DNA of 64,000 nt from Alphaproteobacteria bacterium (GTDB lineage: Bacteria > Pseudomonadota > Alphaproteobacteria > MPNO01), in contig OZ241868.1 in assembly GCA_965202905.1 (NCBI GenBank), positions 2,524,208-2,588,207 of the forward strand, read 5' to 3'. This document shows positions 244 to 23,317 of this stretch, piece by piece. Below the pieces are notes generated by a model. The model worked only from the letters and a program-made list of their open reading frames with translations. It made no database searches and was not told where the DNA came from. The position numbers and the translations under genes are program-made. Numbering within the stretch: position 1 is the first letter of the stretch; every line of letters starts with the position of its first letter.

Positions 244-1119
244 GTGTCGATCGTCTGGATCGCGGCCTATCCCAAATCCGGCAGCACGTGGCTGCGGACG
301 ATGTTGACCAACTATCTGCGCCCGGACGACGAGCCGGCTTCGATCAACGACCTGTTGGGCGGCGTGGGCGACAGCAGCCGGGTGATGTTCGACGATATGC
401 TGGGGCCGGTCTCGTCCGACATGACGGAGGACGAGGTGCTGCGCTGTCGCCCGTTGTTCCAGGAGTTGCTGGCCGCGGAGCGTCCCCATCCCACCTTCTA
501 CAAGACGCACGAAGCTTGGCTGCGCGGTCCCGGCGGCGCGCCGGTGTATTCCCGCGCGGCGGCGGCCGGCGCGGTCTATCTGGTGCGCAACCCGCTGGAT
601 GTGGCCGTGTCCTACGCGCACCACCTGAACCAGCCCGTCGATGAGACCATCGGACGGATGGACGATCCCGACAGCTATGAATGGGGCGGCAGGAGCCGGA
701 TCACGCACACCCTGCCGCAGCGCATGCTCACCTGGAGCGGGCAGGTGTCGAGCTGGCTGGACCAGGAAGAGATCCCTCTGCACGTCGTGCGCTACGAGGA
801 CATGCTGGCGGCCACCGTCGACACGCTCGGCGGGATCGTCCGCTTCGCCGGGCTGGATGTCGACGCCGCCCGGCTGGGCCGGGCGGTGGACCACGCGTCG
901 TTCGAGCGGTTGCAGGCGCAGGAGGCGGATTCCGGGTATCGGGAGAAGCCGACGAGCGCGCGGCCCTTCTTCCGCAGCGGGGTTGCGGGCGGCTGGCGCG
1001 AGTCGCTCGGCGAGGATCAGGTGCGGCGTCTGCTGGCTGCGCACGGGTCGGTCATGGAGCGGTTCGACTATCGGCGCGAGGCCGAGTCGTTTCTGTCGAA
1101 CGGCGAGGGCCGCCGATGA
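244..1119 (+). CDS. PAPS-dependent sulfotransferase (Sulfotransfer_1 family)
   Basis: 5'-PSB motif YPKSGSTWLR and 3'-PB motif LVRNPLDVAVSY; VRYEDM and C-terminal FFRSGVAGGW. Its stop overlaps the cyclase start (ATGA). Confidence 0.92.
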   Translation: MSIVWIAAYPKSGSTWLRTMLTNYLRPDDEPASINDLLGGVGDSSRVMFDDMLGPVSSDMTEDEVLRCRPLFQELLAAERPHPTFYKTHEAWLRGPGGAPVYSRAAAAGAVYLVRNPLDVAVSYAHHLNQPVDETIGRMDDPDSYEWGGRSRITHTLPQRMLTWSGQVSSWLDQEEIPLHVVRYEDMLAATVDTLGGIVRFAGLDVDAARLGRAVDHASFERLQAQEADSGYREKPTSARPFFRSGVAGGWRESLGEDQVRRLLAAHGSVMERFDYRREAESFLSNGEGRR

Positions 1120-2909
1120 TCTCGGGCTTTTACGCGCGGCGGGGCGGCGGGGCGGCGGCGGCCTCCCCGGCGGATGCCGGCCAGCTTCGGCCGGACCCGG
1201 CGGTCGGCCTGTCGGGTGCGGAGGGCCTGCGGTCGGAGGACCGTGAGGCCGGGCTGACGGTGGTGGCGGATTGCCGCCTCGACGACCGGGCCGCCCTGGC
1301 GGGCGCGCTCGGCCTGCGCGACGTGGAGTCGCTGTCCGACAGCGCGCTCATCCTGGGGGCGTATGCGCGCTGGGGGCGCGACTGCCCGTCGCATTTGTTC
1401 GGCGACTACGCGTTCGCGGTGTGGGATGCCCGCCGTCGCACCCTGTTTTGCGCCCGTGACCATGTCGGCGCGCGCGCCTTCCACTACGCGCTGACTGCCG
1501 ACCGATTCGTCTTCGGGAGCGCCGTCGGGTCGGTGCTCGCCGCGCCCGGCGTGCCGGACGCGCTGGACGAGGAGGTGGTGGCGGGGCTGCTGTCGCCGAA
1601 GGTCCGGATGCCGGTGGATCGCAGTTGTTTCCGGGCCGTGAAGCGGCTGTCGCCGGGCCATATGCTGGCCGTGGAGCCGGAGTCGTTGCGCATCGAGCGC
1701 TGGTGGCGGCCGGAGGCCGCACCGTCGGTCGCGCCGACCTCGGACGACGACCGTTCGCAGACCTTTCTCGCGCTGTACCGGCAGGCGGTGGGGGACTGCC
1801 TGCGCGGGGCCGAGGCGGGGTCGGTGGGGACGCATTTGAGCGGCGGGCTGGACTCGTCGAGCATCACGGTGCTCGCGGCCGAGGAGTTGCGCCGCCGGGG
1901 GGAGCCGCCGCCGACGGCGTTCGCGTGGCAGCCGGCGCCGCCGTCGGGGACGGCCGGGGAGGATGATGCGAACGCCGACGAGTATCGCCTCGTCGAGGCG
2001 ACGGCGAGCCGGGCGGAGACGCCGTTGGTCTGGTGCGCGCCCACCGGGGCCGATGTGGAGGCGTGGCTGCGCCAGGACGGGGCACGGGAGTGGGGCAGTG
2101 ATACGCTGCTGCACGAGATGTCGGTCCAGCGGGCTGCGGCGGCGCGCGGGGTGCGTCGGATACTCTCGGGCTGGGGTGGCGATGAATGCGCGTCCTACGG
2201 CGGTCGCGGCTATTACCAGGAACTGCTGCTCGGCGGTCGCTTCATCCGGCTGTGGCGGGCGCTTCGCGCGCGCCGGTCTTCTGCGAAGAACGCCCTGTCG
2301 GCGGTCGTTCTGCCCTTGCTGCCGTTCGGGATGGAACTCGCCATCCGTCGCGCTTTGGATTCGGAGCGCACCGCGCCGCCTCCGCAGCGCTCTTTCGCGC
2401 ATCCGGATCTCGCGCGTCGGTTCAAGCTGCGCCCGCCCGACCTCGGGACGAGAGGCGTTCGGCAGAGGCAGTGTAGCCTGATCGGGCTGGGTCATCTGTG
2501 CGAGCGCATGGAAGGTTGGGCGCTGGAGGGGTCGCGTCGCGGCATCGAGTACGGCTACCCGCTATTGGACCGTCGTCTGATGGAGTTCGTCCTGGGGCTG
2601 CCGCCGGAGCAGTTTCATCAGGGGCGCTGGAGCCGCTGGGTGATGCGCCACGCCCTTCGCACGGTGCTGCCGCCGGAGGTGTGCTGGTACACCGACAAGC
2701 GTGATCCGGTGCGTTTCGCGGGTTACCGGGGGAGCGTGATCGAGACGCTGCCGGTGCTCCACCGCGAGTTGGCCGGTCGCGCGGCGGCGCCCTCGCGGGC
2801 GCGCTATGTCGACATGCCGCATTTGCTGACCTGCCTGGAGGATGGCTGGCCGGCCGGGGAACCCTTTGCCCACCGGGCGCTGACGGCGGTGCGGTTTCTC
2901 GACTTCTGA
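1116..2909 (+). CDS. Lasso peptide cyclase (C protein; asparagine synthetase-like)
   Basis: ATG at 1116 overlaps the upstream stop. Motifs GDYAFAVWD, ARDHVGAR, LSGGLDSSSI, SGWGGDE and YPLLDRRLMEF are present. It lacks the catalytic Cys1 of true AsnB (starts MISG). Lasso precursors and a B2 gene lie next to it. Confidence 0.9.
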   Translation: MISGFYARRGGGAAAASPADAGQLRPDPAVGLSGAEGLRSEDREAGLTVVADCRLDDRAALAGALGLRDVESLSDSALILGAYARWGRDCPSHLFGDYAFAVWDARRRTLFCARDHVGARAFHYALTADRFVFGSAVGSVLAAPGVPDALDEEVVAGLLSPKVRMPVDRSCFRAVKRLSPGHMLAVEPESLRIERWWRPEAAPSVAPTSDDDRSQTFLALYRQAVGDCLRGAEAGSVGTHLSGGLDSSSITVLAAEELRRRGEPPPTAFAWQPAPPSGTAGEDDANADEYRLVEATASRAETPLVWCAPTGADVEAWLRQDGAREWGSDTLLHEMSVQRAAAARGVRRILSGWGGDECASYGGRGYYQELLLGGRFIRLWRALRARRSSAKNALSAVVLPLLPFGMELAIRRALDSERTAPPPQRSFAHPDLARRFKLRPPDLGTRGVRQRQCSLIGLGHLCERMEGWALEGSRRGIEYGYPLLDRRLMEFVLGLPPEQFHQGRWSRWVMRHALRTVLPPEVCWYTDKRDPVRFAGYRGSVIETLPVLHRELAGRAAAPSRARYVDMPHLLTCLEDGWPAGEPFAHRALTAVRFLDF

Positions 2910-3304: not shown

Positions 3305-3477
3305 ATGACCAGCCATCGAAACGCCCTTGTACCCCCCCCCCCCCCCCGCAGGATGAGGCGCGGGAACGCTGGACCCGGCCGATGATCCGCGAACTGGGCC
3401 GCGCCCAGACGACGGAAAGCGGCACTGCCGCTGGTACAGCTGAGAATACCGAATATTTCGACATCGACGCGTCGTAG
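3305..3477 (+). CDS. Lasso precursor A1, core SGTAAGTAENTEYFDIDAS; out of frame at a C16 tract as assembled
   Basis: MTSHRNALV-(C16, 3332-3347)-QDEARERWTRPMIRELGRAQTTE|SGTAAGTAENTEYFDIDAS*. WxxPxI motif, Thr at -2, Ser1, Glu9. In-frame reading needs 3n+2 C. Confidence 0.85.
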
Positions 3478-3940: not shown

Positions 3941-4399
3941 ATGCGGCGGTTGAGCGCGTTCCTTCGTGCGCCGGCGTCGACCAAGGCGCTGGTCGTGGAG
4001 GCCTTGGTGCTGTTCCTGGCGGCGCGGCTGCTGGTCGCGCATGTGCCCATGCGCCACTGGCGTCGCCGGCTGGAGACCCGTATTCAGGCCGGCGACCCGC
4101 TGCCGGAGGGCGACCCGCGCGGGGACACGGCGCGGCAGGTGGCCCGTGCGGTGCGGGCGGCGGCCCGCAATGCGCCCTTCGCCGCCGTCTGCCTGCCGCA
4201 AGCCATGGCCGCGCAGTGGATGCTTCGCCGCCGCTCCATTCCGGGCCGCCTGGTGTTCGGGGTGCGCCGCCGCACCGACGGAGGCGGGCTGCAATATCAC
4301 GCCTGGCTGATTGTGGACGGGCACTGCCTGGTCGGCGGGGGAGAGATCAAGACCTACGCGCCGCTGCCCCCGATCGACGCGGTCGGAGGCCGCGCTTGA
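3941..4399 (+). CDS. Lasso peptide B2 protein (transglutaminase-like leader peptidase)
   Basis: AVCLPQAMA (catalytic Cys), FGVRR and YHAWL (catalytic His); 152 aa; RBS GGAGG. This is the only intact copy in the window. Confidence 0.92.
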   Translation: MRRLSAFLRAPASTKALVVEALVLFLAARLLVAHVPMRHWRRRLETRIQAGDPLPEGDPRGDTARQVARAVRAAARNAPFAAVCLPQAMAAQWMLRRRSIPGRLVFGVRRRTDGGGLQYHAWLIVDGHCLVGGGEIKTYAPLPPIDAVGGRA

Positions 4400-4517
4400 G
4401 GTCTTGTGCGGTCTGGCTTGCGCGGTCTGGAGTGCCGTGCGAGAGTAGCCGGACTGCGCGATGTGAAGCTGAAGTCGAGACCGAGACCGGAAAGGAGAGT
4501 GGGACAGGAACGACGGC

Positions 4518-4970: not shown

Positions 4971-5519
4971 TTAAAGGCGGCGCAGAATTCGGGCCAATCG
5001 CGCAAGGGTTCGGAACGCGCCCAGCCATCCCGCACCCGTCGGCCGCGCGCGGCGGACCGCGCCGGGCGCCGGGATCGCCATGCCTTTCCGGGCGGATCGC
5101 CAATCCTTCGGGCGCTGCCATTCACCGGCCCACAACCCCGCTCGTTCGCGCTTCGCCCGGCGTTCGTCGCTGCTGTAGTCCGGGGGGCCATATTCGGCGA
5201 CGGCGAAGCCATTGCGGACAAGCCATTGGCAGGCGTCCTCGCGCTTGCGGCCGTTCGTCAGGATGACGCGGCCGATGGTTCGCCCGTAGCGGTCGGCCCC
5301 TTTCCCGGCGTCTTCGATGTTGATGCGCCATCCCTCACGCTGGCGGCGGCGAAGATACGCGGCGAAGGCTTCCGTTGCAGCTTGCCCGGCGTCGAATTCG
5401 CGGCCCCTTGCGTTGCGCGCCGGCTGGCCGTTTTCGGGCGCATCGATTCCGGCGAGGCGCACCGGGCCGACGCCCGGAATGTCGAGCGTATCGGCGTCTA
5501 TCAAGCGGCCCTGGCTCAC
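4971..5519 (-). CDS. Thermonuclease (SNase-like) family protein
   Basis: DADTL…VRLAGIDAPE…DRYGRTIG…LVRNGFAV…AKRERAGLWAGEWQRPKDWR. Likely start is GTG at 5519. Confidence 0.85.
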   Translation of the reverse strand: MSQGRLIDADTLDIPGVGPVRLAGIDAPENGQPARNARGREFDAGQAATEAFAAYLRRRQREGWRINIEDAGKGADRYGRTIGRVILTNGRKREDACQWLVRNGFAVAEYGPPDYSSDERRAKRERAGLWAGEWQRPKDWRSARKGMAIPAPGAVRRARPTGAGWLGAFRTLARLARILRRL

Positions 5520-5529
5520 AGGGGCGCGC

Positions 5530-5725
5530 CCTGGAGGTACTTCGCGACCGCGTTGCGTTCGGCCTTCGCGCCGGCGGCGTAGTGGGCGACCATGCGGGCC
5601 GTCTTCCACCCGCCGGAAAGCATGGCTTCGGTGGTGGACGCGCCGCGCGCGTTCGGGGCGGTTTTCACGTCGCGCCATTCGAGCGTGGCGGCTTCGGAGC
5701 GTCGGAGCGCGCCTTGTCGTGATCG
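5530..5725 (-). pseudogene. Internally deleted tyrosine recombinase (Cre/XerD-like) remnant
   Basis: GALRRSEAATLEWRDV (box I R..E) is fused directly to GASTTEAMLSGGWKTARMVAHY (box II with catalytic Tyr). Confidence 0.7.
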
Positions 5726-5856
5726 GGCGGGGCGTGATCGGGCGGGGCGTCGAGGCGAGCGAGCGCCCGGCGGCGGGGCGTTCCGCATCGCCGGCGCAAG
5801 CGCTGCGCCCGCCAGCCCGGTCGCCGCTGGCGACGGCGCGGGAACCCGGCTGGGGG

Positions 5857-6129
5857 TCATCGGCTGGTCCCCGTCGGCGCCGTGCGCGCGATCAACGCTT
5901 CGAGCGCCCGCATCGCTTCGGCGTGACGCTGGTCATCGGCGGCGATCCCGGCGGCGATTCCGGCGTCGCGCGCGCTGGCGTTCTGCTGCACCAGCCGCAA
6001 GCCCCAGGCGATCAGGAGGCATTGCGCGATCCCGATGGCGACGCCGCCGACGGTGGCCCATGCGGAGATTTCCCGCCAGCCCAGCGAGGCGGCGTGAAAG
6101 GCCAGCGTGGCGGTTTCGAACCCGGTCAT
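5857..6129 (-). CDS. Small single-TM hypothetical protein, copy 1 (90 aa)
   Basis: MTGFETATLAFHAASLGWREISAWATVGGVAIGIAQCLLIAWGLRLVQQNASARDAG…HAEAMRALEALIARTAPTGTSR; seven paralogous copies in the window. Confidence 0.7.
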   Translation of the reverse strand: MTGFETATLAFHAASLGWREISAWATVGGVAIGIAQCLLIAWGLRLVQQNASARDAGIAAGIAADDQRHAEAMRALEALIARTAPTGTSR

Positions 6130-6195
6130 GGCGGACCTTCTCTGTTCCGATCTGTTCCGATGATGCTCGTTGGCGACGGACGGCGCAATTCGATG

Positions 6196-6224
6196 TTGAC
6201 CGGCGGGCCGCCGGTAAGTACGAT
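6196..6224 (+). promoter_or_regulatory. Sigma70-like precursor promoter
   Basis: TTGACC-N17-TACGAT. Confidence 0.65.
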
Positions 6225-6314
6225 CTGCGTGTGCTGGATGTGGATCGCTCACAGACGGTTGACGGTGCGATACGGCACGACCGAGCCCAACTCTTGATCT
6301 CTGGGAGAGAAGAC

Positions 6315-6489
6315 ATGACCAACCACCGAGACGCCCTTGTACCCCCCCCCCCCCCCCCCGCAGGATGAGGCGCGGACACGTTGGACCCGGCCGATGATCC
6401 GCGAGCTGGGCCGCGTCCAGGTGACGGAAGGCGGCCCCCATTCTGAACTTACTGAGAATGACACATATTTCGACGTCAACGCATCGTGA
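6315..6489 (+). CDS. Lasso precursor A4, core GGPHSELTENDTYFDVNAS; out of frame at a C18 tract
   Basis: MTNHRDALV-(C18, 6342-6359)-QDEARTRWTRPMIRELGRVQVTE|GGPHSELTENDTYFDVNAS*; Glu9. Confidence 0.85.
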
Positions 6490-6759
6490 CGCACGGCCGC
6501 CGTCAGTCTGCGGAGCGCGCGGCGCCGGGCCGGTGACGTGAGCTCCGGAAACGGAGCGTTCGGTCCCCGGGCCGGGCCTGCCTCGCGTTCGCAAGCCGGC
6601 CGCACGGCTTCGTCGACTTGGTCTGGCCCCCTGGTCTGGCCCAAGGCGATGCCGGCCCGGCTCCCGGTCGGCCACGCGATCGACGTTCGCTGCGCTTGAG
6701 AACGTGTCAGCGGACCGTCTTGCCCTCTCGTGGATGAACCGGGGGATGAACCGGGGAGA

Positions 6760-6931
6760 CGGGGCCGCCGCTCCATTTCGGGCCGCTTGGCGTTCGGGGC
6801 GCGGGTGCGGCGACGGTGGGCTGCAATGCCACGCTTGGCCGGTTGCGGACGGGCGCCGCCCGGTCGGCGGGGGAGAGACCGAGACCTGCGCGCCGTTGCC
6901 CCCGCTTGACGCGGCCGGAGATCGCGCATAA
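6760..6931 (+). pseudogene. Decayed B2 3' fragment
   Basis: GGLQCHAWPVADGRRPVGGGETETCAPLPPLDAAGDRA matches the B2 C-terminus. Confidence 0.75.
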
Positions 6932-6998
6932 CATCTTTAGGTCTGGAGTACCGCGCGATAGCAGCGAGACCGGTCGAAGCCAGAAAGGAAACCGAGAC

Positions 6999-7172
6999 AT
7001 GAGCGACGGCGTGAAGAAGACTTTCAAAGATTACCCCCCGCAGGATGAGGCGCCGACGCGCTGGACCCGGCCGATGATCCGCGAACTGAGCCGCGTCCAG
7101 GGGACGGCAAGCGCCCTCGCTAGTGATGTGGTTGAGAATTCCCTATATTACATCCATGCGGACCTGTCATAG
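6999..7172 (+). CDS. Lasso precursor A5, core SALASDVVENSLYYIHADLS; intact
   Basis: MSDGVKKTFKDYPPQDEAPTRWTRPMIRELSRVQGTA|SALASDVVENSLYYIHADLS*; Thr-2, Ser1, Glu9; no long C tract. Confidence 0.9.
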   Translation: MSDGVKKTFKDYPPQDEAPTRWTRPMIRELSRVQGTASALASDVVENSLYYIHADLS

Positions 7173-7174
7173 AG

Positions 7175-7620
7175 CGCGGCGCTGGGCTGACGAAGGCATC
7201 CGGGCCGAGGGCGTCGGGACGCGGCGGCGGTATGCCGGCATACCCGACAAAGCGAATCCGGTGCGGTTGCGGGGATTGCGCGGGCGCGCGGCGCGCGGTT
7301 GATTAGGGCGAATGCGCCGGTCGAGCGCGCTCCCTCGCGCGCCGACATCGACCCCGGCGTCGACCAGGGCGCTGGTCGTGGAGGCCTTGCCGCCGTTCCC
7401 GGTAGCGCGGCTACCGGGCGCGTGCCCATGCGCCGCTGGCGTCGCCGGCTGGAGGTCCGTATTCGCGCCGGCGACCCGCTGCCGGAGGGTGGCCCGCACG
7501 GGCGCGCGGCGCGGCGGCGCGTTGCCGGCGCAAGCGCTGCATCTGCAAGCCCGGTCGCCGCTGGCGACGGCGCAGGTTGGACGGCCCCGACCTCGTCCGG
7601 CGCGGGAACCCGGCTGGCGG
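7175..7620 (+). pseudogene. Decayed copy of the B2 upstream region and 5' half
   Basis: STRALVVEAL…MRRWRRRLEVRIRAGDPLPEG remnants similar to 3780-4200. Confidence 0.7.
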
Positions 7621-7634
7621 TCATCGGCTGGCGG

Positions 7635-7940
7635 TCATCGGTTCGTCCCCGTCGGCGCCGTGCGCGCAATCAACGCTTCGAGCGCCCGCATCGCTTCGGC
7701 GTGGCTGGCGGCGTTCGCCTGCATGGCCTCTGCGTGACGCTGGTCATCGGTGGCGCGTCCGGCGGCGATCCCGGCGTCGCGCGCGCTGGCGTTCTGCTGC
7801 ATCAGCCGCAAGCCCCAGGCGATCAGGAGGCATTGCGCGATCCCGATGGCGACGCCGCCGACGGTGGCCCATGCGGAGATTTCCCGCCAGCCCAGCGAGG
7901 CGGCGTGAAAGGCCAGCGTGGCGGTTTCGAACCCGGTCAT
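7635..7940 (-). CDS. Small single-TM hypothetical protein, copy 2 (101 aa)
   Basis: MTGFETATLAFHAASLGW…DQRHAEAMQANAASHAEAMRALEALIARTAPTGTNR. Confidence 0.7.
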   Translation of the reverse strand: MTGFETATLAFHAASLGWREISAWATVGGVAIGIAQCLLIAWGLRLMQQNASARDAGIAAGRATDDQRHAEAMQANAASHAEAMRALEALIARTAPTGTNR

Positions 7941-8006
7941 GGCGGACCTTCTCTGTTCCGATCTGTTCCGATGATGCTCGTTGGCGACGGACGGCGCAAT
8001 TCGATG

Positions 8007-8035
8007 TTGACCGGCAGGCCGCCGGTAAGTACGAT
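8007..8035 (+). promoter_or_regulatory. Sigma70-like precursor promoter
   Basis: TTGACC-N17-TACGAT. Confidence 0.65.
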
Positions 8036-8125
8036 CTGCGTGTGCTGGATGTGGATCGCTCACAGACGGTTGACGGTGCGATACGGCACGACCGAGCCCA
8101 ACTCTTGATCTCTGGGAGAGAAGAC

Positions 8126-8277
8126 ATGACCAACCACCGAGACGCCCTTGTACCCCCCCCCCCCCCCGCAGGATGAGGCGGACGCGCTGGACCCGACCTG
8201 CGCGAGCTGGGCTGCGTCCAGGTGACGGAAAGCGGCACCCATAATGGCTGAGATGTAACGACAACGACGCATCGTGA
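8126..8277 (+). pseudogene. Lasso precursor A6, degenerate (C15 tract plus several small deletions); core resembles A7
   Basis: MTNHRDALV-(C15)… then GTGACGGAAAGCGGCACCCATAATGG…AACGACAACGACGCATCGTGA, which is the A7 core with deletions. Confidence 0.75.
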
Positions 8278-8539
8278 CGCACGGCCGCCGTCACTCTGCG
8301 GAGAGCGCGGCGCCGGGCCGGTGACGTGAGCTCCGGAAACGGAGCGTTCGGTCTCCGGGCCGGGCCTGCCTCGCGTTCGCAAGCCGGCCGCACGGCTTCG
8401 TCGACTTGGTCTGGCCCCCTGGTCTGGCCCAAGGCGATGCCGGCCCGGCTCCCGGTCGGCCACGCGATCGACGCTCGCTGCGCTTGAGAACGTGTCAGCG
8501 GACCGTCTTGCCCTCTCGTGGATGAACCGGGGGGATGAA

Positions 8540-8719
8540 CCGGGGAGACGGGGCCGCCGCTCCATTTCGGGCCGCTTGGCGTTCGGGCGCGGGTGCGGCG
8601 ACGGTGGGCTGCAATGCCACGCTTGGCCGGTTGCGGACGGGCGCCGCCCGGTCGGCGGGGGAGAGACCGAGACCTGCGCGCCGTTGCCCCCGCTTGACGC
8701 GGCCGGAGATCGCGCATAA
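8540..8719 (+). pseudogene. Decayed B2 3' fragment (duplicate of 6760-6931)
   Basis: Same translated remnant as the ORF-track entries at 6704 and 8492. Confidence 0.75.
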
Positions 8720-8786
8720 CATCTTTAGGTCTGGAGTACCGCGCGATAGCAGCGAGACCGGTCGAAGCCAGAAAGGAAACCGAGAC

Positions 8787-8957
8787 ATGAGCGACGGCGT
8801 GAAGAAGACTTTCAAAGATTACCCCCCGCAGGATGAGGCGCCGACGCGCTGGACCCGACCGACGATTCGCGAGCTGGGCTGCGTCCAGGTGACGGAAAGC
8901 GGCACCCATAATGGTCTTCTTGAGACTGCAACATATAACGACAACGACGCATCGTGA
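8787..8957 (+). CDS. Lasso precursor A7, core SGTHNGLLETATYNDNDAS; intact
   Basis: MSDGVKKTFKDYPPQDEAPTRWTRPTIRELGCVQVTE|SGTHNGLLETATYNDNDAS*; Glu9. Confidence 0.9.
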   Translation: MSDGVKKTFKDYPPQDEAPTRWTRPTIRELGCVQVTESGTHNGLLETATYNDNDAS

Positions 8958-9035
8958 CGCACGGCCGCCGTCACTCTGCGGCGAGGGCGGTTTTCGTGGC
9001 GTCCCGCGCGTCGCTCGATCGACGATAACAGCCAG

Positions 9036-9347
9036 TCACACCCTGTCGTCCCGTTTTCGCGGCCGGATGACGCGCTGGAGAATGGCGCCGAGCGCCGCGC
9101 CGGTGAGGACCGACAGCGCAAGGGCGACCCAGCGCAGACCGGCGGACATCTCGCCGAACGGGACGCCGGTGAGAACGGACAGCGCCACGAACGGCGCCAT
9201 GAAGGCCGTGCCGAGACCGGGCGACGCCTGAAGACCCAGAAACAGCCCGACAAAGGGCGCGAACAGGCCGAAAACGGCCCCCGCGATCAGTCCCGTCCGC
9301 AGGGATCGAAGACCGGTCGGCACGACGAGGCGGCGGGGCCGTTTCAT
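9036..9347 (-). CDS. Small multi-TM hypothetical membrane protein (103 aa), copy 1
   Basis: MKRPRRLVVPTGLRSLRTGLIAGAVFGLFAPFVGLFLG…VALALSVLTGAALGAILQRVIRP; hydrophobic; duplicated at 18434-18745. Confidence 0.65.
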   Translation of the reverse strand: MKRPRRLVVPTGLRSLRTGLIAGAVFGLFAPFVGLFLGLQASPGLGTAFMAPFVALSVLTGVPFGEMSAGLRWVALALSVLTGAALGAILQRVIRPRKRDDRV

Positions 9348-9729: not shown

Positions 9730-10054
9730 TCATTGGTTCGTCCCCGTCGGCGCCGTGCGCGCGATCAACGCTTCGAGCGCCCGCATCGCTTCGGCGTGGC
9801 TGTCTGCGTGCGCTTGCATGGTTTCGGCGTGCGCCTGCATCGCTTCTGCGTGACGCTGGTCATCGGTGACGCGCCCGGCGGCGATCCCGGCGTCGCGCGC
9901 GCTGGCGTTCTGCTGCATCAGCCGCAAGCCCCAGGCGATCAGGAGGCATTGCGCGATCCCGATGGCGACGCCGCCGACGGTGGCCCATGCGGAGACTTCC
10001 TGCCAGCCCAGCGAGGCGGTGAAAGGCCAGCGTGGCGGTTTCGAACCCGGTCAT
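9730..10054 (-). pseudogene. Small single-TM protein, copy 3, frameshifted
   Basis: A 2-nt deletion near 10017-10020 relative to the other copies; extra HAETMQA heptad. Confidence 0.65.
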
Positions 10055-10330: not shown

Positions 10331-10636
10331 TCATCGGCTGGTCCCCGTCGGCGCCGTGCGCGCGATCAATGCTTCGAGCGCCCGCATCGCTTCGGCGTGG
10401 TTGGCGGCGTGCGCCTGCATGGCTTCTACATGACGCTGGTCATCGGTGGCGCGCCCGGCGGCGATCCCGGCGTCGCGCGCGCTGGCGTTCTGCTGCATCA
10501 GCCGCAAGCCCCAGGCAATGAGGGCGCATTGCGCGATCCCGATGGCGACGCCGCCGACGGTCGCCCATGCGGAGACTTCCTGCCAGCCCAGCGAGGCGGC
10601 GTGAAAGGCCAGCGTGGCGGTTTCGAACCCGGTCAT
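10331..10636 (-). CDS. Small single-TM hypothetical protein, copy 4
   Basis: MTGFETATLAFHAASLGWQEVSAW…. Confidence 0.7.
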   Translation of the reverse strand: MTGFETATLAFHAASLGWQEVSAWATVGGVAIGIAQCALIAWGLRLMQQNASARDAGIAAGRATDDQRHVEAMQAHAANHAEAMRALEALIARTAPTGTSR

Positions 10637-10682
10637 GGCTCGTTCCGATGATGCTCGTTGGCGACGGACGGCGCAATTCACG

Positions 10683-10790: not shown

Positions 10791-10980
10791 ATGCCCAACC
10801 ACCGAGACGCCCTCCGTACCCCCCCCCCCCCAGGATGAGGCGCGGAAACGCTGGACCAGGCCGATCGTCCGCGAATGGGACGGCATGACAGAGACGACGA
10901 GCGATGTCTTCACGTCCAGTAAAGACACTACCGCGGAAGATGAGGGTACATACAGCTATATGAATACCAACGCGTCATGA
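10791..10980 (+). CDS. Lasso precursor A8, core probably SDVFTSSKDTTAEDEGTYSYMNTNAS; +1 frameshift at or near a C13 tract
   Basis: RBS GGGAGAG and ATG at 10791. MPNHRDAL… then QDEARKRWTRPIVREWDGMTETT|SDVFTSSKD…NAS*. Positional alignment gives Ser1/Asp9. Confidence 0.75.
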
Positions 10981-11173: not shown

Positions 11174-11690
11174 ATGACCTCCGCGCGTTTCGCCGTGGCG
11201 GTTGCGGCCCTTTTTCTGGTCCGCCCGGCGGCGGCCGGGACTCCCTTTTCTGGCCGGCCCGGCGGCGGCCGGGACTGTGGTCGATCTTGAACCCGTGCTC
11301 GTCGTCGACGCCTCACGCAGCATCGACGGCTATATGTACAGCCTGCAAGGCGAGGGTTACGCCCAGGCGCCGACCCGTCCCGAGGCGATCCGCGCGATTG
11401 CTTCGGGCTTGCGGGCTTGGCGCGGCGGGTAGCGGCCGCCTGTGTCGAGCGGTCGGGTCGGGCCGAACAGGCCGACTGGCCATCCTGGTCGACTGAACGG
11501 CGATCGACGGCCCGGCCTCCGCAGCGTCATTCGCCAAAACCCCGCGCCAAAACCCTGATGGGCCTGCCGCGACGCTCTTCCGACGGCGCCGGACCCGGCG
11601 CGGCCATCGACTTCGCCGCCGGGCAGTTCGGCGGCAACGGGTTCGGCGGCGCCCGCCGGGCGATCGACGCCTCCGGCGCCGTCCGCCTCA
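11174..11690 (+). pseudogene. DUF1194 (vWA-like) domain protein, fragmented
   Basis: Signal-like MTSARFAVAVAALFLVRPAAA; VDLEPVLVVDASRSID…LQGEGYAQA; GAAIDFAAGQFGGNGFGGARRAIDASG, spread across frames. Confidence 0.6.
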
Positions 11691-11692
11691 TA

Positions 11693-11821
11693 CCGGTCCT
11701 CCCACCCGGTCCTCCCACCCGGTCCTCCCACCCGGTCCTCCCACCCGGTCCTCCCACCCGGTCCTCCCACCCGGTCCTCCCACCCGGTCCTCCCACCCGG
11801 TCCTCCCACCCGGTCCTCCCA
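11693..11821. repeat. VNTR, 13-bp unit CCGGTCCTCCCAC x about 10
   Basis: Perfect tandem copies read directly from the sequence. Confidence 0.95.
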
Positions 11822-12298
11822 GTGGCGTAACGTGGCGGCGTAACGTGGCGACGGGACGCCCAACGCCTCCGCCGCCTGCTCCTGTATCAACTCCCGGGCC
11901 TGCCGCCTCGAATGAAGCTCCTCGACCTTCATCGCTCGTCGTCCTTGCAAGACCTCTGTTGTGCAAGACCTCCGCCGGCTTCATGGCGCCGCTTCTGCGA
12001 GGCGACGGCGAACCGGACGGATCGCCCGGACGGATCGCATGACGCCGGCGCCGGACATGACGCTCGTCAGCAACTCAGCAACACGGGTTAGCGACGCGCG
12101 CGGCCGCGCGCGTTGACAAGCGCGATCCGCCAACGCATCCTGACCGCAAGGCGACGGCAGGCCTTGGGAGCGGGCCCAATCGATCGCCGGATAACTCGGG
12201 GCAGGATCGCCCGGCGCGGCTGGGCGCGGTGGGGGACAGGAATTGGCGCTGCGCGTTGACGTGGCCGCCCGCGGCGGCGTCCGGACCGCGGCGATGCG

Positions 12299-15773: not shown

Positions 15774-16556
<783 letters not shown>

Positions 16557-18065: not shown

Positions 18066-18267
18066 TGGAATGGACGCAAGACCGGATCGAGCGCCGTTCA
18101 TCCCAGGGCGATTCTGGCCCAGGGCGATTCTGGCCCAAGGCGATTCTGGCCCGGCTCCCGGTCGGCCACGCGATCGACGTTCACTGCACGAAGCGTTGCC
18201 GGCTCTATCCAGGGGCAGCCGCGGGGGCCGGGTGGGTTCCTGGCGGCGGGTCGCTGGGTTCGATGAG

Positions 18268-18333
18268 ACGGAAGTCGGCACCGAGGCCAGGGCGGCTGAG
18301 AATGCTGATTACTTCGACGCCACCGCATCGTTG
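18268..18333 (+). pseudogene. Orphan lasso core A9 (VGTEARAAENADYFDATAS), no leader, stop lost
   Basis: ACG GAA | GTC GGC ACC GAG GCC AGG GCG GCT GAG AAT GCT GAT TAC TTC GAC GCC ACC GCA TCG TTG. It parallels the A1 core and is followed by the conserved post-precursor flank. Confidence 0.7.
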
Positions 18334-18349
18334 ACCCGACCCTCAGGCA

Positions 18350-19200
18350 TCATGACGCACGGCCGCCGTCACTCTGCGGCGAGGGCGGTTTTCGTGGCGT
18401 CCCGCGCGTCGCTCGATCGACGATAACAGCCCGTCACACCCTGTCGTCCCGTTTTCGCGGCCGGATGACGCGCTGGAGAATGGCGCCGAGCGCCGCGCCG
18501 GTGAGGACCGACAGCGCAAGGGCGACCCAGCGCAGACCGGCGGACATCTCGCCGAACGGGACGCCGGTGAGAACGGACAGCGCCACGAACGGCGCCATGA
18601 AGGCCGTGCCGAGACCGGGCGACGCCTGAAGACCCAGAAACAGCCCGACAAAGGGCGCGAACAGGCCGAAAACGGCCCCCGCGATCAGTCCCGTCCGCAG
18701 GGATCGAAGACCGGTCGGCACGACGAGGCGGCGGGGCCGTTTCATTGGCTCCCCGCCTGCCCTTTCGGTACGCGCCACCCCACACCGTCTTTGCCCGTGA
18801 CCCGTTGTTTCTCGACGTCCCTCCAAGGGGGTCCCGATGCGACGACCGGCGAAAGATCTTGCCGACCGATCGCGCATCGCGGCCGTCCTCGACGCCCGCC
18901 TGCATCGTGGCCCGTGGGCGCGCCTTGTCGTGACCGGGCGGGGCGTGATCGGATGTGGCGTGATCGGATGGGCGTGATCGGGCGGGGCGTCGAGGCGAGC
19001 GAGCGCCCGGCGGCGGGGCGTTCCGCATCGCCGGCGCAAGCGCTGCATCCGCCAGCCCGGTCGCCGCTGGCGACGGCGCGGGTTGGACGGCCCCGACCTC
19101 GCCCGGCGCGGGAACCCGGCTGGCGGTCATCGGCTGGTCCCCGTCGGCGCCGTGCGCGCGATCAATGCTTCGAGCGCCCGCATCGCTTCGGCGTGGTTGG
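18350..19200. repeat. Dispersed duplication of about 8950-9800
   Basis: Near-identical DNA, including the 103-aa membrane protein gene. Confidence 0.88.
18434..18745 (-). CDS. Small multi-TM hypothetical membrane protein, copy 2
   Basis: Translation identical to 9036-9347. Confidence 0.65.
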   Translation of the reverse strand: MKRPRRLVVPTGLRSLRTGLIAGAVFGLFAPFVGLFLGLQASPGLGTAFMAPFVALSVLTGVPFGEMSAGLRWVALALSVLTGAALGAILQRVIRPRKRDDRV

Positions 19201-19432
19201 CGGCGTGCGCCTGCATGGCTTCTACATGACGCTGGTCATCGGTGGCGCGCCCGGCGGCGATCCCGGCGTCGCGCGCGCTGGCGCTTTGCTGCATCAGGTG
19301 TAAGCCCCAGGCAATGAGGGCGCATTGCGCGATCCCGATGGCGACGACGCCGACAGCGGCCCATGCGGCAATCTGTTGCCAGCCCAGCGAGGCGGCGTGA
19401 AAGGCCAGCGTGGCGGTTTCGAACCCGGTCAT
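19127..19432 (-). CDS. Small single-TM hypothetical protein, copy 5
   Basis: MTGFETATLAFHAASLGWQQIAAWAAVGVVAIG…. Confidence 0.7.
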   Translation of the reverse strand: MTGFETATLAFHAASLGWQQIAAWAAVGVVAIGIAQCALIAWGLHLMQQSASARDAGIAAGRATDDQRHVEAMQAHAANHAEAMRALEALIARTAPTGTSR

Positions 19433-19674
19433 GGCGGACCCCCTCGTTCCGATGATGCTCGTTGGCGACGGACGGCGCAATTCGACATCGACCGACGGGC
19501 CGCCGGTCAGTACGATCGGCGCGCGCCGCGGCGTCGACCGAGGCGCTGGTCGTGGAGGCGCGGCCAGCTATTGCGCGCGCCCATGCGGCGCCGGCTGGAG
19601 ACCCGTATTCGCGCCGGCGACCCGCGCGGGTTGGACGGCCCCGACCTCGCCCGGCGCGGGAACCCGGCTGGCGG

Positions 19675-19980
19675 TCATCGGCTGGTCCCCGTCGGCGCCG
19701 TGCGCGCGATCAACACTTCGAGCGCCCGCATCGCTTCGGCGTGGCTGTCTGCGTGCGCCTGCATCGCTTCTGCGTGGCGCTGGTCATCGGTGACGCGCCC
19801 GGCGGCGATCCCGGCGTCGCGCGCGCTGGCGTTCTGCTGCATCAGCCGCAAGCCCCAGGCGATCAGGAGGCATTGCGCGATCCCGATGGCGACGCCGCCG
19901 ACGGTGGCCCATGCGGAGACTTCCTGCCAGCCCAGCGAGGCGGCGTGAAAGGCCAGCGTGGCGGTTTCGAACCCGGTCAT
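19675..19980 (-). CDS. Small single-TM hypothetical protein, copy 6
   Basis: Paralog lying in a tandem unit of about 550-570 bp. Confidence 0.7.
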   Translation of the reverse strand: MTGFETATLAFHAASLGWQEVSAWATVGGVAIGIAQCLLIAWGLRLMQQNASARDAGIAAGRVTDDQRHAEAMQAHADSHAEAMRALEVLIARTAPTGTSR

Positions 19981-20246
19981 GGCGGACCCCTCTGTTCCGA
20001 TGATGCTCGTTGGCGACGGACGGCGCAATTCGACATCGACCGACGGGCCGCCGGTCAGTACGACCGGCGCGTGTCGAAGGCGGCGGTTGAGGGCGTTCCT
20101 TCGCGCGCCGCGGCGTCGACCGAGGCGCTGGTCGTGGAGGCGCGGCCAGCGCCCATGCGGCGCCGGCTGGAGACCCGTATTCGCGCCGGCGACCCGCGCG
20201 GGTTGGACGGCCCCGACCTCGCCCGGCGCGGGAACCCGGCTGGCGG

Positions 20247-20552
20247 TCATTGGTTCGTCCCCGTCGGCGCCGTGCGCGCGATCAACGCTTCGAGCGCCTG
20301 CATCGCTTCGGCGTGGCTGGCGGCGTGCGCCTGCATGGCTTCGGCGTGGCGCTGGTCATCGGTGGCGCGCCCGGCGGCGATCCCGGCGTCGCGCGCGCTG
20401 GCGCTTTGCTGCATCAGGTGTAAGCCCCAGGCAATCAGGGCGCATTGCGCGATCCCGATGGCGACGCCGCCGACGGTCGCCCATGCGGAGACTTCCTGCC
20501 AGCCCAGCGAGGCGGCGTGAAAGGCCAGCGTGGCGGTTTCAAACCCGGTCAT
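20247..20552 (-). CDS. Small single-TM hypothetical protein, copy 7
   Basis: Paralog in the tandem unit. Confidence 0.7.
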   Translation of the reverse strand: MTGFETATLAFHAASLGWQEVSAWATVGGVAIGIAQCALIAWGLHLMQQSASARDAGIAAGRATDDQRHAEAMQAHAASHAEAMQALEALIARTAPTGTNQ

Positions 20553-20615
20553 GGCGGACCCCCTCGTTCCGATGATGCTCGTTGGCGACAAACGGCGCAA
20601 TTCATGTTGTCCGGC

Positions 20616-21119: not shown

Positions 21120-21295
21120 ATGACCAACCATCGAGACGCCCTTGTACCCCCCCCCCCCCCCCGCAGGATGAGGCGCGGAAACGCTGGACCCGGCCAACGA
21201 TCTTCGCACTGGGCGATGTCGAGGTGACGGAAGGCGCCACTTCTCCGAATGTCAAGGAGGATAACACCGAATACCCCTCGTCATCATCATCGTAG
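21120..21295 (+). CDS. Lasso precursor A10, core GATSPNVKEDNTEYPSSSSS; out of frame at a C16 tract
   Basis: MTNHRDALV-(C16, 21147-21162)-QDEARKRWTRPTIFALGDVEVTE|GATSPNVKEDNTEYPSSSSS*; promoter-like TTGACA-N17-GATGAT at 21011. Confidence 0.85.
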
Positions 21296-21759: not shown

Positions 21760-23187
21760 GTGGCGGGCGTGAGCGCGGAGTCCCGGGATCTCATCGAACG
21801 GCTGAGAGGCCTGCTCGGCGCCGCCGCCGTTCTGACCGAACCGGCCGACACGGAACCCTTCCTGATCGACGAGCGCGGCCGGTATCGCGGACGGGCGGCG
21901 GCGGTGGTGCGTCCCGCCGACGCCGAAGCGGTCGCCGCCACCGTAAGGCTGTGCGCCGGGCGCCTCGTCCCGATCGTCCCCCAGGGCGGCAACACCGGGC
22001 TGTGCGGGGCCGCGACGCCGGACGAGAGCGGGCGCGCGATCGTCCTCAGCCTTGCCCGGCTCGACCGGGTTCGCGCGGTCGATCCGGCGAACTACACCGT
22101 CACCGTCGAAGCGGGGGTGATCCTGGCCGACGTGCAGAAGGCCGCGGCCGCGGCCGACCGGCTGTTTCCGCTCAGCCTCGGCGGCGAGGGGACGGCCCGG
22201 ATCGGCGGGACTCTGTCGACCAACGCCGGCGGCGCCGGGGTTCTGCGCTACGGCAACGCGCGGGATCTGGTGCTGGGGCTCGAAGTGGTGCTGCCCGACG
22301 GCCGGATATGGGACGGGCTGTCGACGCTGCGCAAGGACAACACCGGCTATGACCTCAAGCATCTGTTCGTCGGCGCGGAAGGCACGCTCGGCGTCATCAC
22401 CGCGGCGGTCCTGAAGCTGTTCCCGCGGCCGCACGCGCTGGAGACGGCTCTGCTCGCGGTCGAAAACCCCGCGGCGGCCGTCGCGCTGCTCGCCCGCGCG
22501 CGCGCCGCGACGGGCGACCGGACGACGACCTTCGAGCTGATGCTGCGGACGCCGCTCGAGCTGGTCTTCGCCCACATTCCCGGTGCCCGCGATCCGTTCG
22601 AGACGCCCCATCCCTGCTACGCGCTGCTCGAGCTCGCCGCCGGCGCGGCCGATGACGACATCCGCACGCTGACCGAATCCTTCCTCGCCGAGGCAATGGA
22701 GGATGGGCTGGTGCGCGATGCGGTCATCGCCGGGAGCGGTGCCCAGGCGGCCGATTTCCGGAAGCTGCGCGAAACCATCCCCGAGGCGCAGAAACACGCC
22801 GGCGCCTCGATCAAGCACGATGTCTCGGTGCCGGTCTCCCGGGTCGCGGACTTCATGGACGAGGCCTCGCGGCGGGTGTCCGAGCGCGTACCGGGCCTCA
22901 GGGTCTGCGCCTTCGGCCATGTCGGGGACGGCAACATCCATTTCAACCTCAGCCAGCCCGAGGGCGCGGACGGCGCGGCGTTCATGGCCCGGGAGGACGA
23001 GCTCAACGGCATCGTCCACGACATCGTCGTCGCCATGCGCGGCAGCATCAGCGCCGAGCACGGCATCGGCCAGCTCAAGCGCGCCGCCCTCGTCCACTAC
23101 AAGCCCGCGGTCGAACTCGACCTGATGCGCCGCATCAAGGCGAGTCTCGATCCCGACGGCCTGATGAACCCCGGAAAGGTGCTCTGA
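21760..23187 (+). CDS. FAD-binding oxidoreductase (D-2-hydroxyacid dehydrogenase, GlcD-like)
   Basis: VPQGGNTGLCG, IGGTLSTNAGG, LRKDNTGYDLK, FGHVGDGNIH, SAEHGIG, MNPGKVL. Confidence 0.92.
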   Translation: MAGVSAESRDLIERLRGLLGAAAVLTEPADTEPFLIDERGRYRGRAAAVVRPADAEAVAATVRLCAGRLVPIVPQGGNTGLCGAATPDESGRAIVLSLARLDRVRAVDPANYTVTVEAGVILADVQKAAAAADRLFPLSLGGEGTARIGGTLSTNAGGAGVLRYGNARDLVLGLEVVLPDGRIWDGLSTLRKDNTGYDLKHLFVGAEGTLGVITAAVLKLFPRPHALETALLAVENPAAAVALLARARAATGDRTTTFELMLRTPLELVFAHIPGARDPFETPHPCYALLELAAGAADDDIRTLTESFLAEAMEDGLVRDAVIAGSGAQAADFRKLRETIPEAQKHAGASIKHDVSVPVSRVADFMDEASRRVSERVPGLRVCAFGHVGDGNIHFNLSQPEGADGAAFMAREDELNGIVHDIVVAMRGSISAEHGIGQLKRAALVHYKPAVELDLMRRIKASLDPDGLMNPGKVL

Positions 23188-23317
23188 ACCGGCGTCGGCG
23201 CCGCCCTGGCAGCGCCTTGGCGCGCCGGCAGACGCGGTTCGGCCGCCCCGCCGGCCCGGCCCGCCGCGTCTGCCGAAGCGCGTCCGCCGAACCGCGTCTG
23301 CCGAAAGGATCCCGACG

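Follow-up and report, generated by a model that had tools for sequence, protein, structure and literature searches.

The window analysed here, 64,000 nucleotides (nt) of an uncultured alphaproteobacterial sponge symbiont (about 70% G+C, genome assembled as one 3.87 Mb contig), begins within a lasso-peptide gene cluster that continues beyond the window 5' end. About ten precursor genes or fragments are found across 27 kb of the window, and we compared the two neighboring blocks that carry four of them (A4–A7). Both blocks, at 5850–7070 and 7628–8858, derive from one 1.2 kb module and are near-identical except around the precursor cores, and the evidence set out below favors recombination between paralogous modules as the process that exchanges those cores. 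The elements of each copy, in order, are a small membrane-protein gene, a promoter and MTNH-leader precursor, a B2 leader peptidase gene relic within a spacer, and a promoter and MSDG-leader precursor. The features of the blocks are as follows.

5857..6132, minus strand: small single-transmembrane (TM) protein gene of block 1, 91 aa; open reading frame (ORF) of repeat family D1, no Pfam match, no RNA contigs
6196..6224, plus strand: A4 promoter, sigma-70-like, TTGACC-17-TACGAT, from a consensus scan
6315..6489, plus strand: A4, MTNH-leader precursor with a C18 tract at 6342–6359 and core GGPHSELTENDTYFDVNAS, from ORF and translation
6481..6530, plus strand (also 8269–8318 and 8949–8981): conserved 3' box, CATCGTGACGCACGGCCGCCGTCAsTCTGCGGAG...
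6490..6998, plus strand: spacer F1, with a B2 C-terminal relic (6704–6931) and the A5 promoter (6906–6934)
6999..7172, plus strand: A5, MSDG-leader precursor, in frame, core SALASDVVENSLYYIHADLS
7173..7627, plus strand: A5 3' flank, with a B2 N-terminal relic and upstream element U; between the blocks and in neither, families D14 and D19
7635..7943, minus strand: small single-TM protein gene of block 2, 102 aa, one extra 11-aa repeat, from ORF and alignment
8007..8035, plus strand: A6 promoter, from a consensus scan
8126..8277, plus strand: A6, with an MTNH leader 5' half as in the block and, past the join, the leader 3' half, core and 3' box of A7 type; 8 gap events as assembled
8178..8300, plus strand: putative exchange tract shared with A7 (8838–8970), from informative sites and a 47-nt identity
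8278..8786, plus strand: second copy of spacer F1, with a B2 relic (8492–8719) and the A7 promoter (8694–8722)
8787..8957, plus strand: A7, MSDG-leader precursor, in frame, core SGTHNGLLETATYNDNDAS

Identity between the two blocks

The blocks were compared by global alignment with identity counted per segment. Their flanks are 99.1–99.5% identical: the intergenic region and 5' half of the MTNH leader match at 210/211 positions, and the spacer, B2 C-terminal relic, MSDG promoter and leader 5' half match at 580/585, with two 1-nt indels. The upstream element and minus-strand TM gene match at 271/281 (96.4%) with one in-frame 33-nt indel, and the poly-C run has 18 C in block 1 versus 15 C in block 2. 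Divergence between the blocks is limited to the leader 3' half and the core. It appears as an internal patch, 6370–6484 versus 8178–8272, with 83 matches, 12 mismatches and 8 gap events (87%), and again past 7070/8858, where the 3' half of the MSDG leader retains 35/42 positions and the A5 and A7 cores 33/56 (59%). The near-identity that the first-pass annotation had noted, extending through non-coding DNA and B2 debris, is borne out by the alignment and segment counts, as is its expectation that flanks would diverge less per site than cores. Its picture of the core as the only large difference within the blocks holds for the A4/A6 patch, which is internal, and fails for the MSDG cores, whose difference lies at the block end.

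Exactly four sigma-70-like sites occur in 5800–9100, compared with 0.3 expected, one upstream of each precursor, and the MSDG promoter sits within the last codons of the B2 relic. The relic at 6704–6931 corresponds to the C-terminal half of B2, by alignment with the intact gene at 3941–4399 (46% over 70 aa, E=2e-15), and the relic 3' of A5 shares 22/34 identities with the B2 N-terminus. The 3' part of the B2 relic may have been retained because the MSDG promoter lies there. As assembled, the A4 ATG is out of frame with the remainder of the gene.

Precursor family and core mosaics

The wider comparison set comprises 21 aligned modules, from the window, from an independent 1.2 kb contig of the Joint Genome Institute (JGI), here L001, and from an independent 11.5 kb long-read contig, L002, whose flanking genes differ from those of the window. 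All of the window precursors carry the leader W-T-R-P-x-I-R-E-L-G-x-V-Q-x-T-x. Their translations fit the lasso leader motif YxxPxLxxxG with Thr at −2, the Gly-to-Thr spacing being one residue below that of the textbook motif, and the lasso core pattern of Gly, Ser, Ala or Cys in first place and Asp or Glu at 7–9. Each gene encodes one leader and one core rather than a multi-core precursor polypeptide. Two leader types are observed. The first begins MTNH, MTDH or MPDH, contains a poly-C tract and is always divergent from the small single-TM gene; the second begins MSDGVKKTFKDY and is always downstream of a B2 relic. Cores begin with Gly or Ser, have Glu or Asp at position 9 (10/10 window copies) and Tyr near position 13, and end with Ser in 20 of the 21 core copies read. 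The 3' box is kept in 18/21 aligned modules regardless of core, and in the same alignment GTGACG brackets the cores. With its flanks, the box folds no better than shuffled sequence (z = 0.24, −0.51 and 1.16), so a role as RNA structure is not claimed for it; no intrinsic terminator pattern was found.

The cores share sub-blocks as a network, as the following copies illustrate.

L001 copy a: SGPH-DGLLE-NDTYFDVNAS
L001 copy b: SGPH-SDLTE-NDTYFDVNAS
Window A4: GGPH-SELTE-NDTYFDVNAS
L002 copy g: SALH-DGLLE-NDTYFDVNAS
Window A7: SGTH-NGLLE-TATYNDNDAS
Window A5: SALA-SDVVE-NSLYYIHADLS

The A5 and A7 cores had been called unrelated, which does not stand: the two have 59% of nucleotides and the family scaffold in common, and are linked to each other through further copies. 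The cores are diverged, mosaic members of one homologous family.

Breakpoints were evaluated at three-sequence informative sites with permutation. A6 follows A4 at 5 sites, A7 at 14 of the next 15 (13 of them consecutive), and A4 at the remaining 48 (p<0.0005). The resulting pattern, 11111-2222222222222-1-2-1..., delimits a tract of ~120 nt at about 8178–8300, and A6 includes a 47-nt stretch identical to A7 8868–8914 (repeat family D12). L001 copy a is identical to copy b as far as the His4 codon, after which it is identical to L002 copy g (p<0.0005); breakpoints therefore also occur within cores. One core family is found behind both leader types, as seen in window A4 and L001 copy b. In L001 an A4-type core sits behind an MSDG leader and is followed by a spacer that has the block-1 allele at all diagnostic sites and then by an A7 core; this arrangement and that of the window would be a single unequal crossover apart, within the identical 6797–7070 / 8586–8858 segment.

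L002 carries eight further precursors assembled from the same parts. Two of its adjacent modules are ~98–99% identical over a 5' block of ~450 nt, differ in their cores and realign at the 3' box, so that the contrast between the window blocks, with flanks at 99% or above and a core below about 60%, is repeated there. The core SGPDASLTETTYFIPESQTS is found twice in L002, with different neighbors, and identical tracts of 15–150 nt are common to non-adjacent copies. Mosaic structure, breakpoints and reuse of parts are thus present in independent assemblies. Exact-pattern scans with the conserved leader DNA in genome and metagenome contig collections gave no match.

Strain differences, read depth and transcription

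Window DNA is present in runs labeled as a single organism (coded A, 2024), in sponge metagenomes and in sponge or marine metatranscriptomes, the best run containing only 0.69 of the sampled words. Reads were examined as k=31 contigs or unitigs with depth, from DNA runs X1, X2, X6 and X8 and from RNA runs including X5 and X7; X1 and X2 represent symbiont strains from two sponge individuals. A 3,301-nt housekeeping region (window 21800–25100) served as control. X1 covers it with a single 3.5 kb contig (10.1x) that departs from the window by one substitution and by a 24-nt repeat indel, and X2 shows one substitution at ~15–16x. Background divergence is therefore ~0.03%, with strains ~99.97% identical to the window. 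The 24-nt indel of the X1 strain, at window 24862, is in frame and falls in the Ala/Gly-rich linker of an acyl-CoA dehydrogenase gene.

Core content differs between these near-identical strains. An exact 130-nt contig for the A5 core is found in X1 only, at 11.8x compared with the single-copy depth of 10.1x. The A4 core of the window is weakly supported in X1 (5.8–10.8x), and X2 and RNA run X7 carry instead an A4 variant, SGPHSDLTE, in which two residues are changed; both differences between window A4 and the L001/X2 allele are non-synonymous (G1S and E6D). The A7 core is represented by exact contigs in X1 (154 nt, 21.4x), X2 (132 nt, 20.8x) and RNA run X5 (160 nt), and a 98%-identical protein is encoded on an independent JGI contig. 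Because core content differs against a background of ~0.03%, core turnover is faster than genome divergence, as the first-pass annotation had proposed. The spacer in X1 (23.5–27x) and the A7 core are at about twice the single-copy depth, which fits two blocks and two intact A7-type cores.

Run X8, from another sponge sample, has a loose end at window 7101, where the end of an MSDG-type leader continues into a different core (GGIRQPDRA...). This indicates that the population holds more cores than this genome.

Transcription of the precursors in the sponge host is clear and, by contig depth, strong. Contigs from four metatranscriptomes, with depth taken as a rough measure of transcription, cover 6262–7277 as well as A7. 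Coverage is deepest over the precursors, reaching 372x at 6389–6515 and 185x at 7024–7150 in X5 (100–370x overall), and RNA contigs over A4 start in the 6262–6388 bin. Read-through RNA contigs of 547–552 nt cross spacer F1. All four block precursors have both a promoter-like site and RNA coverage; no RNA contigs from the four metatranscriptomes lie over the TM gene or the integrase remnant.

Assembly quality at A6

The deletion junctions of A6 (8181, 8199–8203 and 8247–8265) have zero depth in X1, X2, X6 and X8, as does A6 itself in read contigs across 8185–8202 and 8239–8265. A6-specific words are absent from all indexed runs, with at most one sampled word present, which is common with A7. 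The deletions cluster where A4-type and A7-type sequences differ. Given this placement, the zero support and a depth equivalent to two A7 cores, we read the A6 damage as a consensus artefact at a strain-variable site, which is the most likely of the explanations; that A6 is a real but patchy recombination product is the less likely, though still sizeable, alternative. The true A6 gene probably carries the A7 core intact behind an MTNH leader.

The first-pass annotation had described A6 as a deletion-riddled A7 core behind a different leader, and either a conversion intermediate or an assembly chimera. The link to A7 survives in the 47-nt identity, while the deletions, at zero depth, speak against an intermediate and point to the consensus. 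Metagenome consensus at such loci can hold invented deletions, as that of A6 probably does.

Window alleles seen in none of the DNA runs compared include 5807–5808, 6686, 6740, 7220, 7334, 7419, 7423 and 8584. Several are small indels, and the runs agree with one another at these sites; they may be local consensus errors or belong to a private strain.

Probable recombination between paralogous modules

The best explanation for the locus, to which we assign a probability of roughly 0.6, is homologous recombination between paralogous modules with the leader and 3' box as homology arms. According to this model, the lasso precursor library would have grown through repeated duplication of a unit of precursor and B2 protease, B2 having decayed in every copy seen except one and the decayed copies keeping their 3' end, where the next precursor has its promoter. 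The two blocks would be a recent duplicate, or a recently homogenized pair, of the two-precursor module. Recombination between modules, either as gene conversion or as unequal crossing-over between tandem paralogs, is predicted to resolve in the two conserved stretches that bracket each core: arm 1, the leader from CAGGATGAGGCGC to CGCTGGACCCGGCCGATGATCCGCGAGCTGGGCCGCGTCCAGGTGACGGAA (~80 nt), and arm 2, the 33–50 nt 3' box. As a cassette, a core or part of a core would then pass from one promoter and leader context, and from one array position, to another. The role of the arms is suggested by the positions of the breakpoints, RecA-type recombination is the presumed agent, and the direction of each transfer is likewise presumed.

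The earlier proposal that cores are exchanged gains from the A6/A7 tract, the single core family behind both leaders, the repeated core in L002 and the core mosaics; it is weakened at A5/A7, which may instead mark the end of the duplication. Its use of the flanks as a neutral clock is not supported. Their near-identity is real, and they may instead be either a young duplication or the product of repeated homogenization; one genome is compatible with either.

Several points weigh against recombination between modules. If the duplication simply ended in the leader, exchange is not required to explain A5 versus A7. About a dozen window alleles in 5500–9300 are without support from any run, and part of the fine structure of the blocks may be error. 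No read spans the 1.8 kb repeat and the contigs are k=31, so the evidence for the tandem order comes from the assembly and from depth ratios. Finally, the spacer and A7 depths could include a contribution from the genome's two other cyclase copies.

The strongest of the other explanations, though an unlikely one, is concerted evolution, in which old duplicates with long-diverged cores have their promoters, leaders and spacers homogenized by conversion, with tracts that stop at the cores or are selected out. The static pattern would look alike, identity fades gradually over the leader 3' half (35/42) without a sharp stop, and the lower similarity of the upstream element and TM gene relative to the rest of the block suggests several tracts. 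Concerted evolution does not account for cores that move, with the A6/A7 core behind different leaders and one L002 core in two contexts, nor for the difference in core content between strains ~99.97% identical in housekeeping DNA.

An assembly artefact is somewhat less probable again. In this case a hypervariable repeat would have been mis-joined, or assembled as a strain chimera, at block 2 or its junctions, and the near-identical tandem pair would exist as such in no single cell. The unsupported A6 junctions are expected on this account, as are the unsupported window alleles in both blocks and the limited word content of the best run; at 6566/8354, the sole spacer site that differs between X1 and X2, block 1 agrees with X1 and block 2 with X2. 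Opposing it are the approximately 2x depths of the spacer and A7 core in X1, the exact contigs that confirm the A5, A7 and A4 cores each with their junctions, and the tandem near-identical modules of the same kind in L001 and L002.

A dedicated diversification mechanism, whether a site-specific recombinase, a diversity-generating retroelement (DGR) or recombination triggered by poly-C/poly-G as at the G-quadruplex (G4) element of Neisseria pilin, is improbable. The 5' edge of the A6 exchange tract adjoins the C15–18 run, which is long enough for a putative opposite-strand G-quadruplex, integrase remnants lie next to the arrays in the window and in L002, and GTGACG brackets the cores. The integrase pieces are C-terminal fragments only, and neither a recombinase nor a reverse transcriptase in intact form turned up among the genes covered by a non-exhaustive scan of the window; on these grounds a site-specific recombinase was rejected. 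MSDG-type genes have only C6 and yet show breakpoints. A DGR was rejected as well, since differences between cores involve every base and also length, unlike DGR mutagenesis with its equal-length repeat pair that differs at adenines.

Poly-C tracts of 10–18 nt, which encode poly-Pro in the leaders, are found at window 3332–3347, 6342–6359, 8153–8167, 10820–10830 and 21147–21162, and in L002 at 4485–4501, 5319–5329, 8434–8443 and 9188–9201. As assembled, the ATG is out of frame in A1, A4, A6, A8 and A9, and it is in frame only if the run is interrupted or 2 mod 3; one run of reads carries a variant shorter by 2 nt. These length differences are either phase variation or homopolymer sequencing error. 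A bolder and rather doubtful idea is that the array is a self-contained diversification device, in which poly-C slippage toggles translation, and stalled replication or a G-quadruplex starts short-tract conversion downstream. If true, cores and half-cores would be continually reshuffled among expressed sites, and the symbionts of each sponge would have their own changing lasso set.

Point mutation alone, under strong diversifying selection following a recent duplication, fits the two non-synonymous differences between A4 and the L001/X2 allele and was nevertheless rejected as very improbable, owing to a 41% core nucleotide difference with indels beside 0.5–0.9% in the flanks and to the identical 15–150 nt tracts shared by non-adjacent copies.

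Comparison with known systems

The cyanobactin pat/tru clusters of Prochloron didemni, reportedly the subject of Donia et al. 2006, offer the closest parallel. They too belong to a marine-invertebrate symbiont (of ascidians), with two copies in one genome and near-identical DNA except for a short core stretch. Over ~11 kb, pat1 matches pat2 throughout apart from a 24-bp core cassette, in which identity falls to 46%; strains otherwise >97–99% identical differ in core content, and recombination scars are seen elsewhere in the pathway (PMC3062557). The Prochloron precursors are multi-core and no cassette donors were identified, whereas here single-core genes have their own promoters and many paralogs are possible donors, with donor and recipient tracts and intra-core mosaics; the class is also different, lasso rather than cyanobactin. 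By analogy, the locus can be regarded as a lasso-peptide counterpart of the cyanobactin pattern of identical cluster and different core. New here are lasso peptides as the class, single-core genes with their own promoters, visible donor tracts and mosaics within cores.

For the prochlorosins (ProcA) of marine picocyanobacteria, "diversifying recombination" is a proposed and unresolved hypothesis (10.1101/2020.03.09.984088, citing Cubillos-Ruiz et al. 2017). Their dozens of precursors per enzyme, conserved leader and intergenic DNA and diversity at the core resemble the present array, while the genes are scattered and the cores reportedly diversify mainly by indels rather than domain swaps (10.1101/2020.03.09.984088); here, whole or partial core swaps between tandem modules are visible. 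How the core of a RiPP (a peptide made on the ribosome and modified after translation) changes amid identical surroundings has been an open question since the Prochloron cyanobactins, and still is for prochlorosins. With donor and recipient copies adjacent and breakpoints in the leader and 3' box, the recombination reading is directly testable.

Multi-precursor lasso clusters are known from caulosegnin-type clusters. These and the sponge lasso clusters share with the present one an Asn-synthase-like cyclase, a split B2, a sulfotransferase, a YxxPxLxxxG...T(−2)-like leader and the use of one cyclase for several precursors. In sponge microbiomes, lasso clusters with sulfo-, glyco- and nucleotidyl-transferases have been noted, and their precursors were not analyzed (PMC9426513). 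The described clusters have one to a few precursors, in contrast to ~ten modules in 27 kb here, and neither B2 relics as promoter carriers, nor three near-identical cyclases per genome, nor core shuffling are described for known lasso clusters.

Segmental gene conversion also operates at Neisseria pilE/pilS and Borrelia vlsE, which have one expression site, silent promoterless donors and high measured switching rates. Variable minicassettes between conserved stretches, short mosaic tracts and a G-rich element beside the recombining segment are features in common. The present array differs in that every block copy is promoter-bearing and transcribed rather than feeding a single expression locus. 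A 2026 review treats gene conversion for polyketide synthase (PKS) and non-ribosomal peptide synthetase (NRPS) clusters and not for RiPP precursors (PMC13500794). The array would extend natural combinatorial libraries to lasso peptides, with relevance to sponge chemical ecology and to lasso-peptide engineering, where one cyclase might serve many cores.

Maturation genes and other features of the cluster

The enzyme genes within the window are the following.

244..1119, plus strand: sulfotransferase gene of the lasso cluster (Pfam Sulfotransfer_1, E=2.3e-24)
1113..2909, plus strand: lasso cyclase C, asparagine-synthase-like (Pfam Asn_synthase, E=2e-26, and GATase_7)
3941..4399, plus strand: B2 leader peptidase, transglutaminase-like, intact (Pfam Transglut_core3, E=6e-24)

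Of the ORFs read across window 1–30 kb, the array region, this B2 gene is the sole intact one, and the other copies are relics. A B1 protein, PqqD-like or with a RiPP recognition element (RRE), was not found among the scanned window ORFs, and the cluster runs past the window 5' end. Relatives of the cyclase at ~50% identity lie in clusters that hold PqqD, B2, a kinase and sulfotransferases; the closest are only ~53% identical, and the protein collection contains no close syntenic strain assembly. Precursors and enzymes together identify the locus as a lasso-peptide cluster, the products of which are predicted. One enzyme set (C, B2 and the sulfotransferase, together with B1 and a kinase outside the window) presumably matures all cores, and the peptides are probably sulfated or phosphorylated. 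An inositol-monophosphatase-family gene at 15774–16556, ~12 kb from the sulfotransferase, is a candidate CysQ-like phosphatase for 3'-phosphoadenosine 5'-phosphate (PAP), and PAP from peptide sulfation may be recycled by its product.

The lasso system is multiplied genome-wide. On the 3.87 Mb contig there are three cyclase paralogs with 98% mutual identity (P0008, P0128 and P0129), cyclase C of the window being one of three, along with at least four more MSDG-type precursors (P0002, P0003, P0006 and P0007). Within the window, a leaderless fragment is present at 18100–18345. A perfect 13-nt tandem repeat, CCGGTCCTCCCAC, occurs in ~10 copies at 11667–11847, with a related repeat in L002 at ~3990–4140.

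At least seven copies of the small single-TM protein, each with a coiled-coil tail and no Pfam match, are encoded on the minus strand, at 5857–6132, 7635–7943, 9730–9927, 10331–10681, 19127–19480, 19675–20250 and 20247–20600. The tail contains a variable count of 33-nt (11-aa, HAEAMQAxAxS) repeats. A TM-gene copy in L002 comes after the C-terminal fragment of an integrase, a hint that this gene originated in a mobile element.

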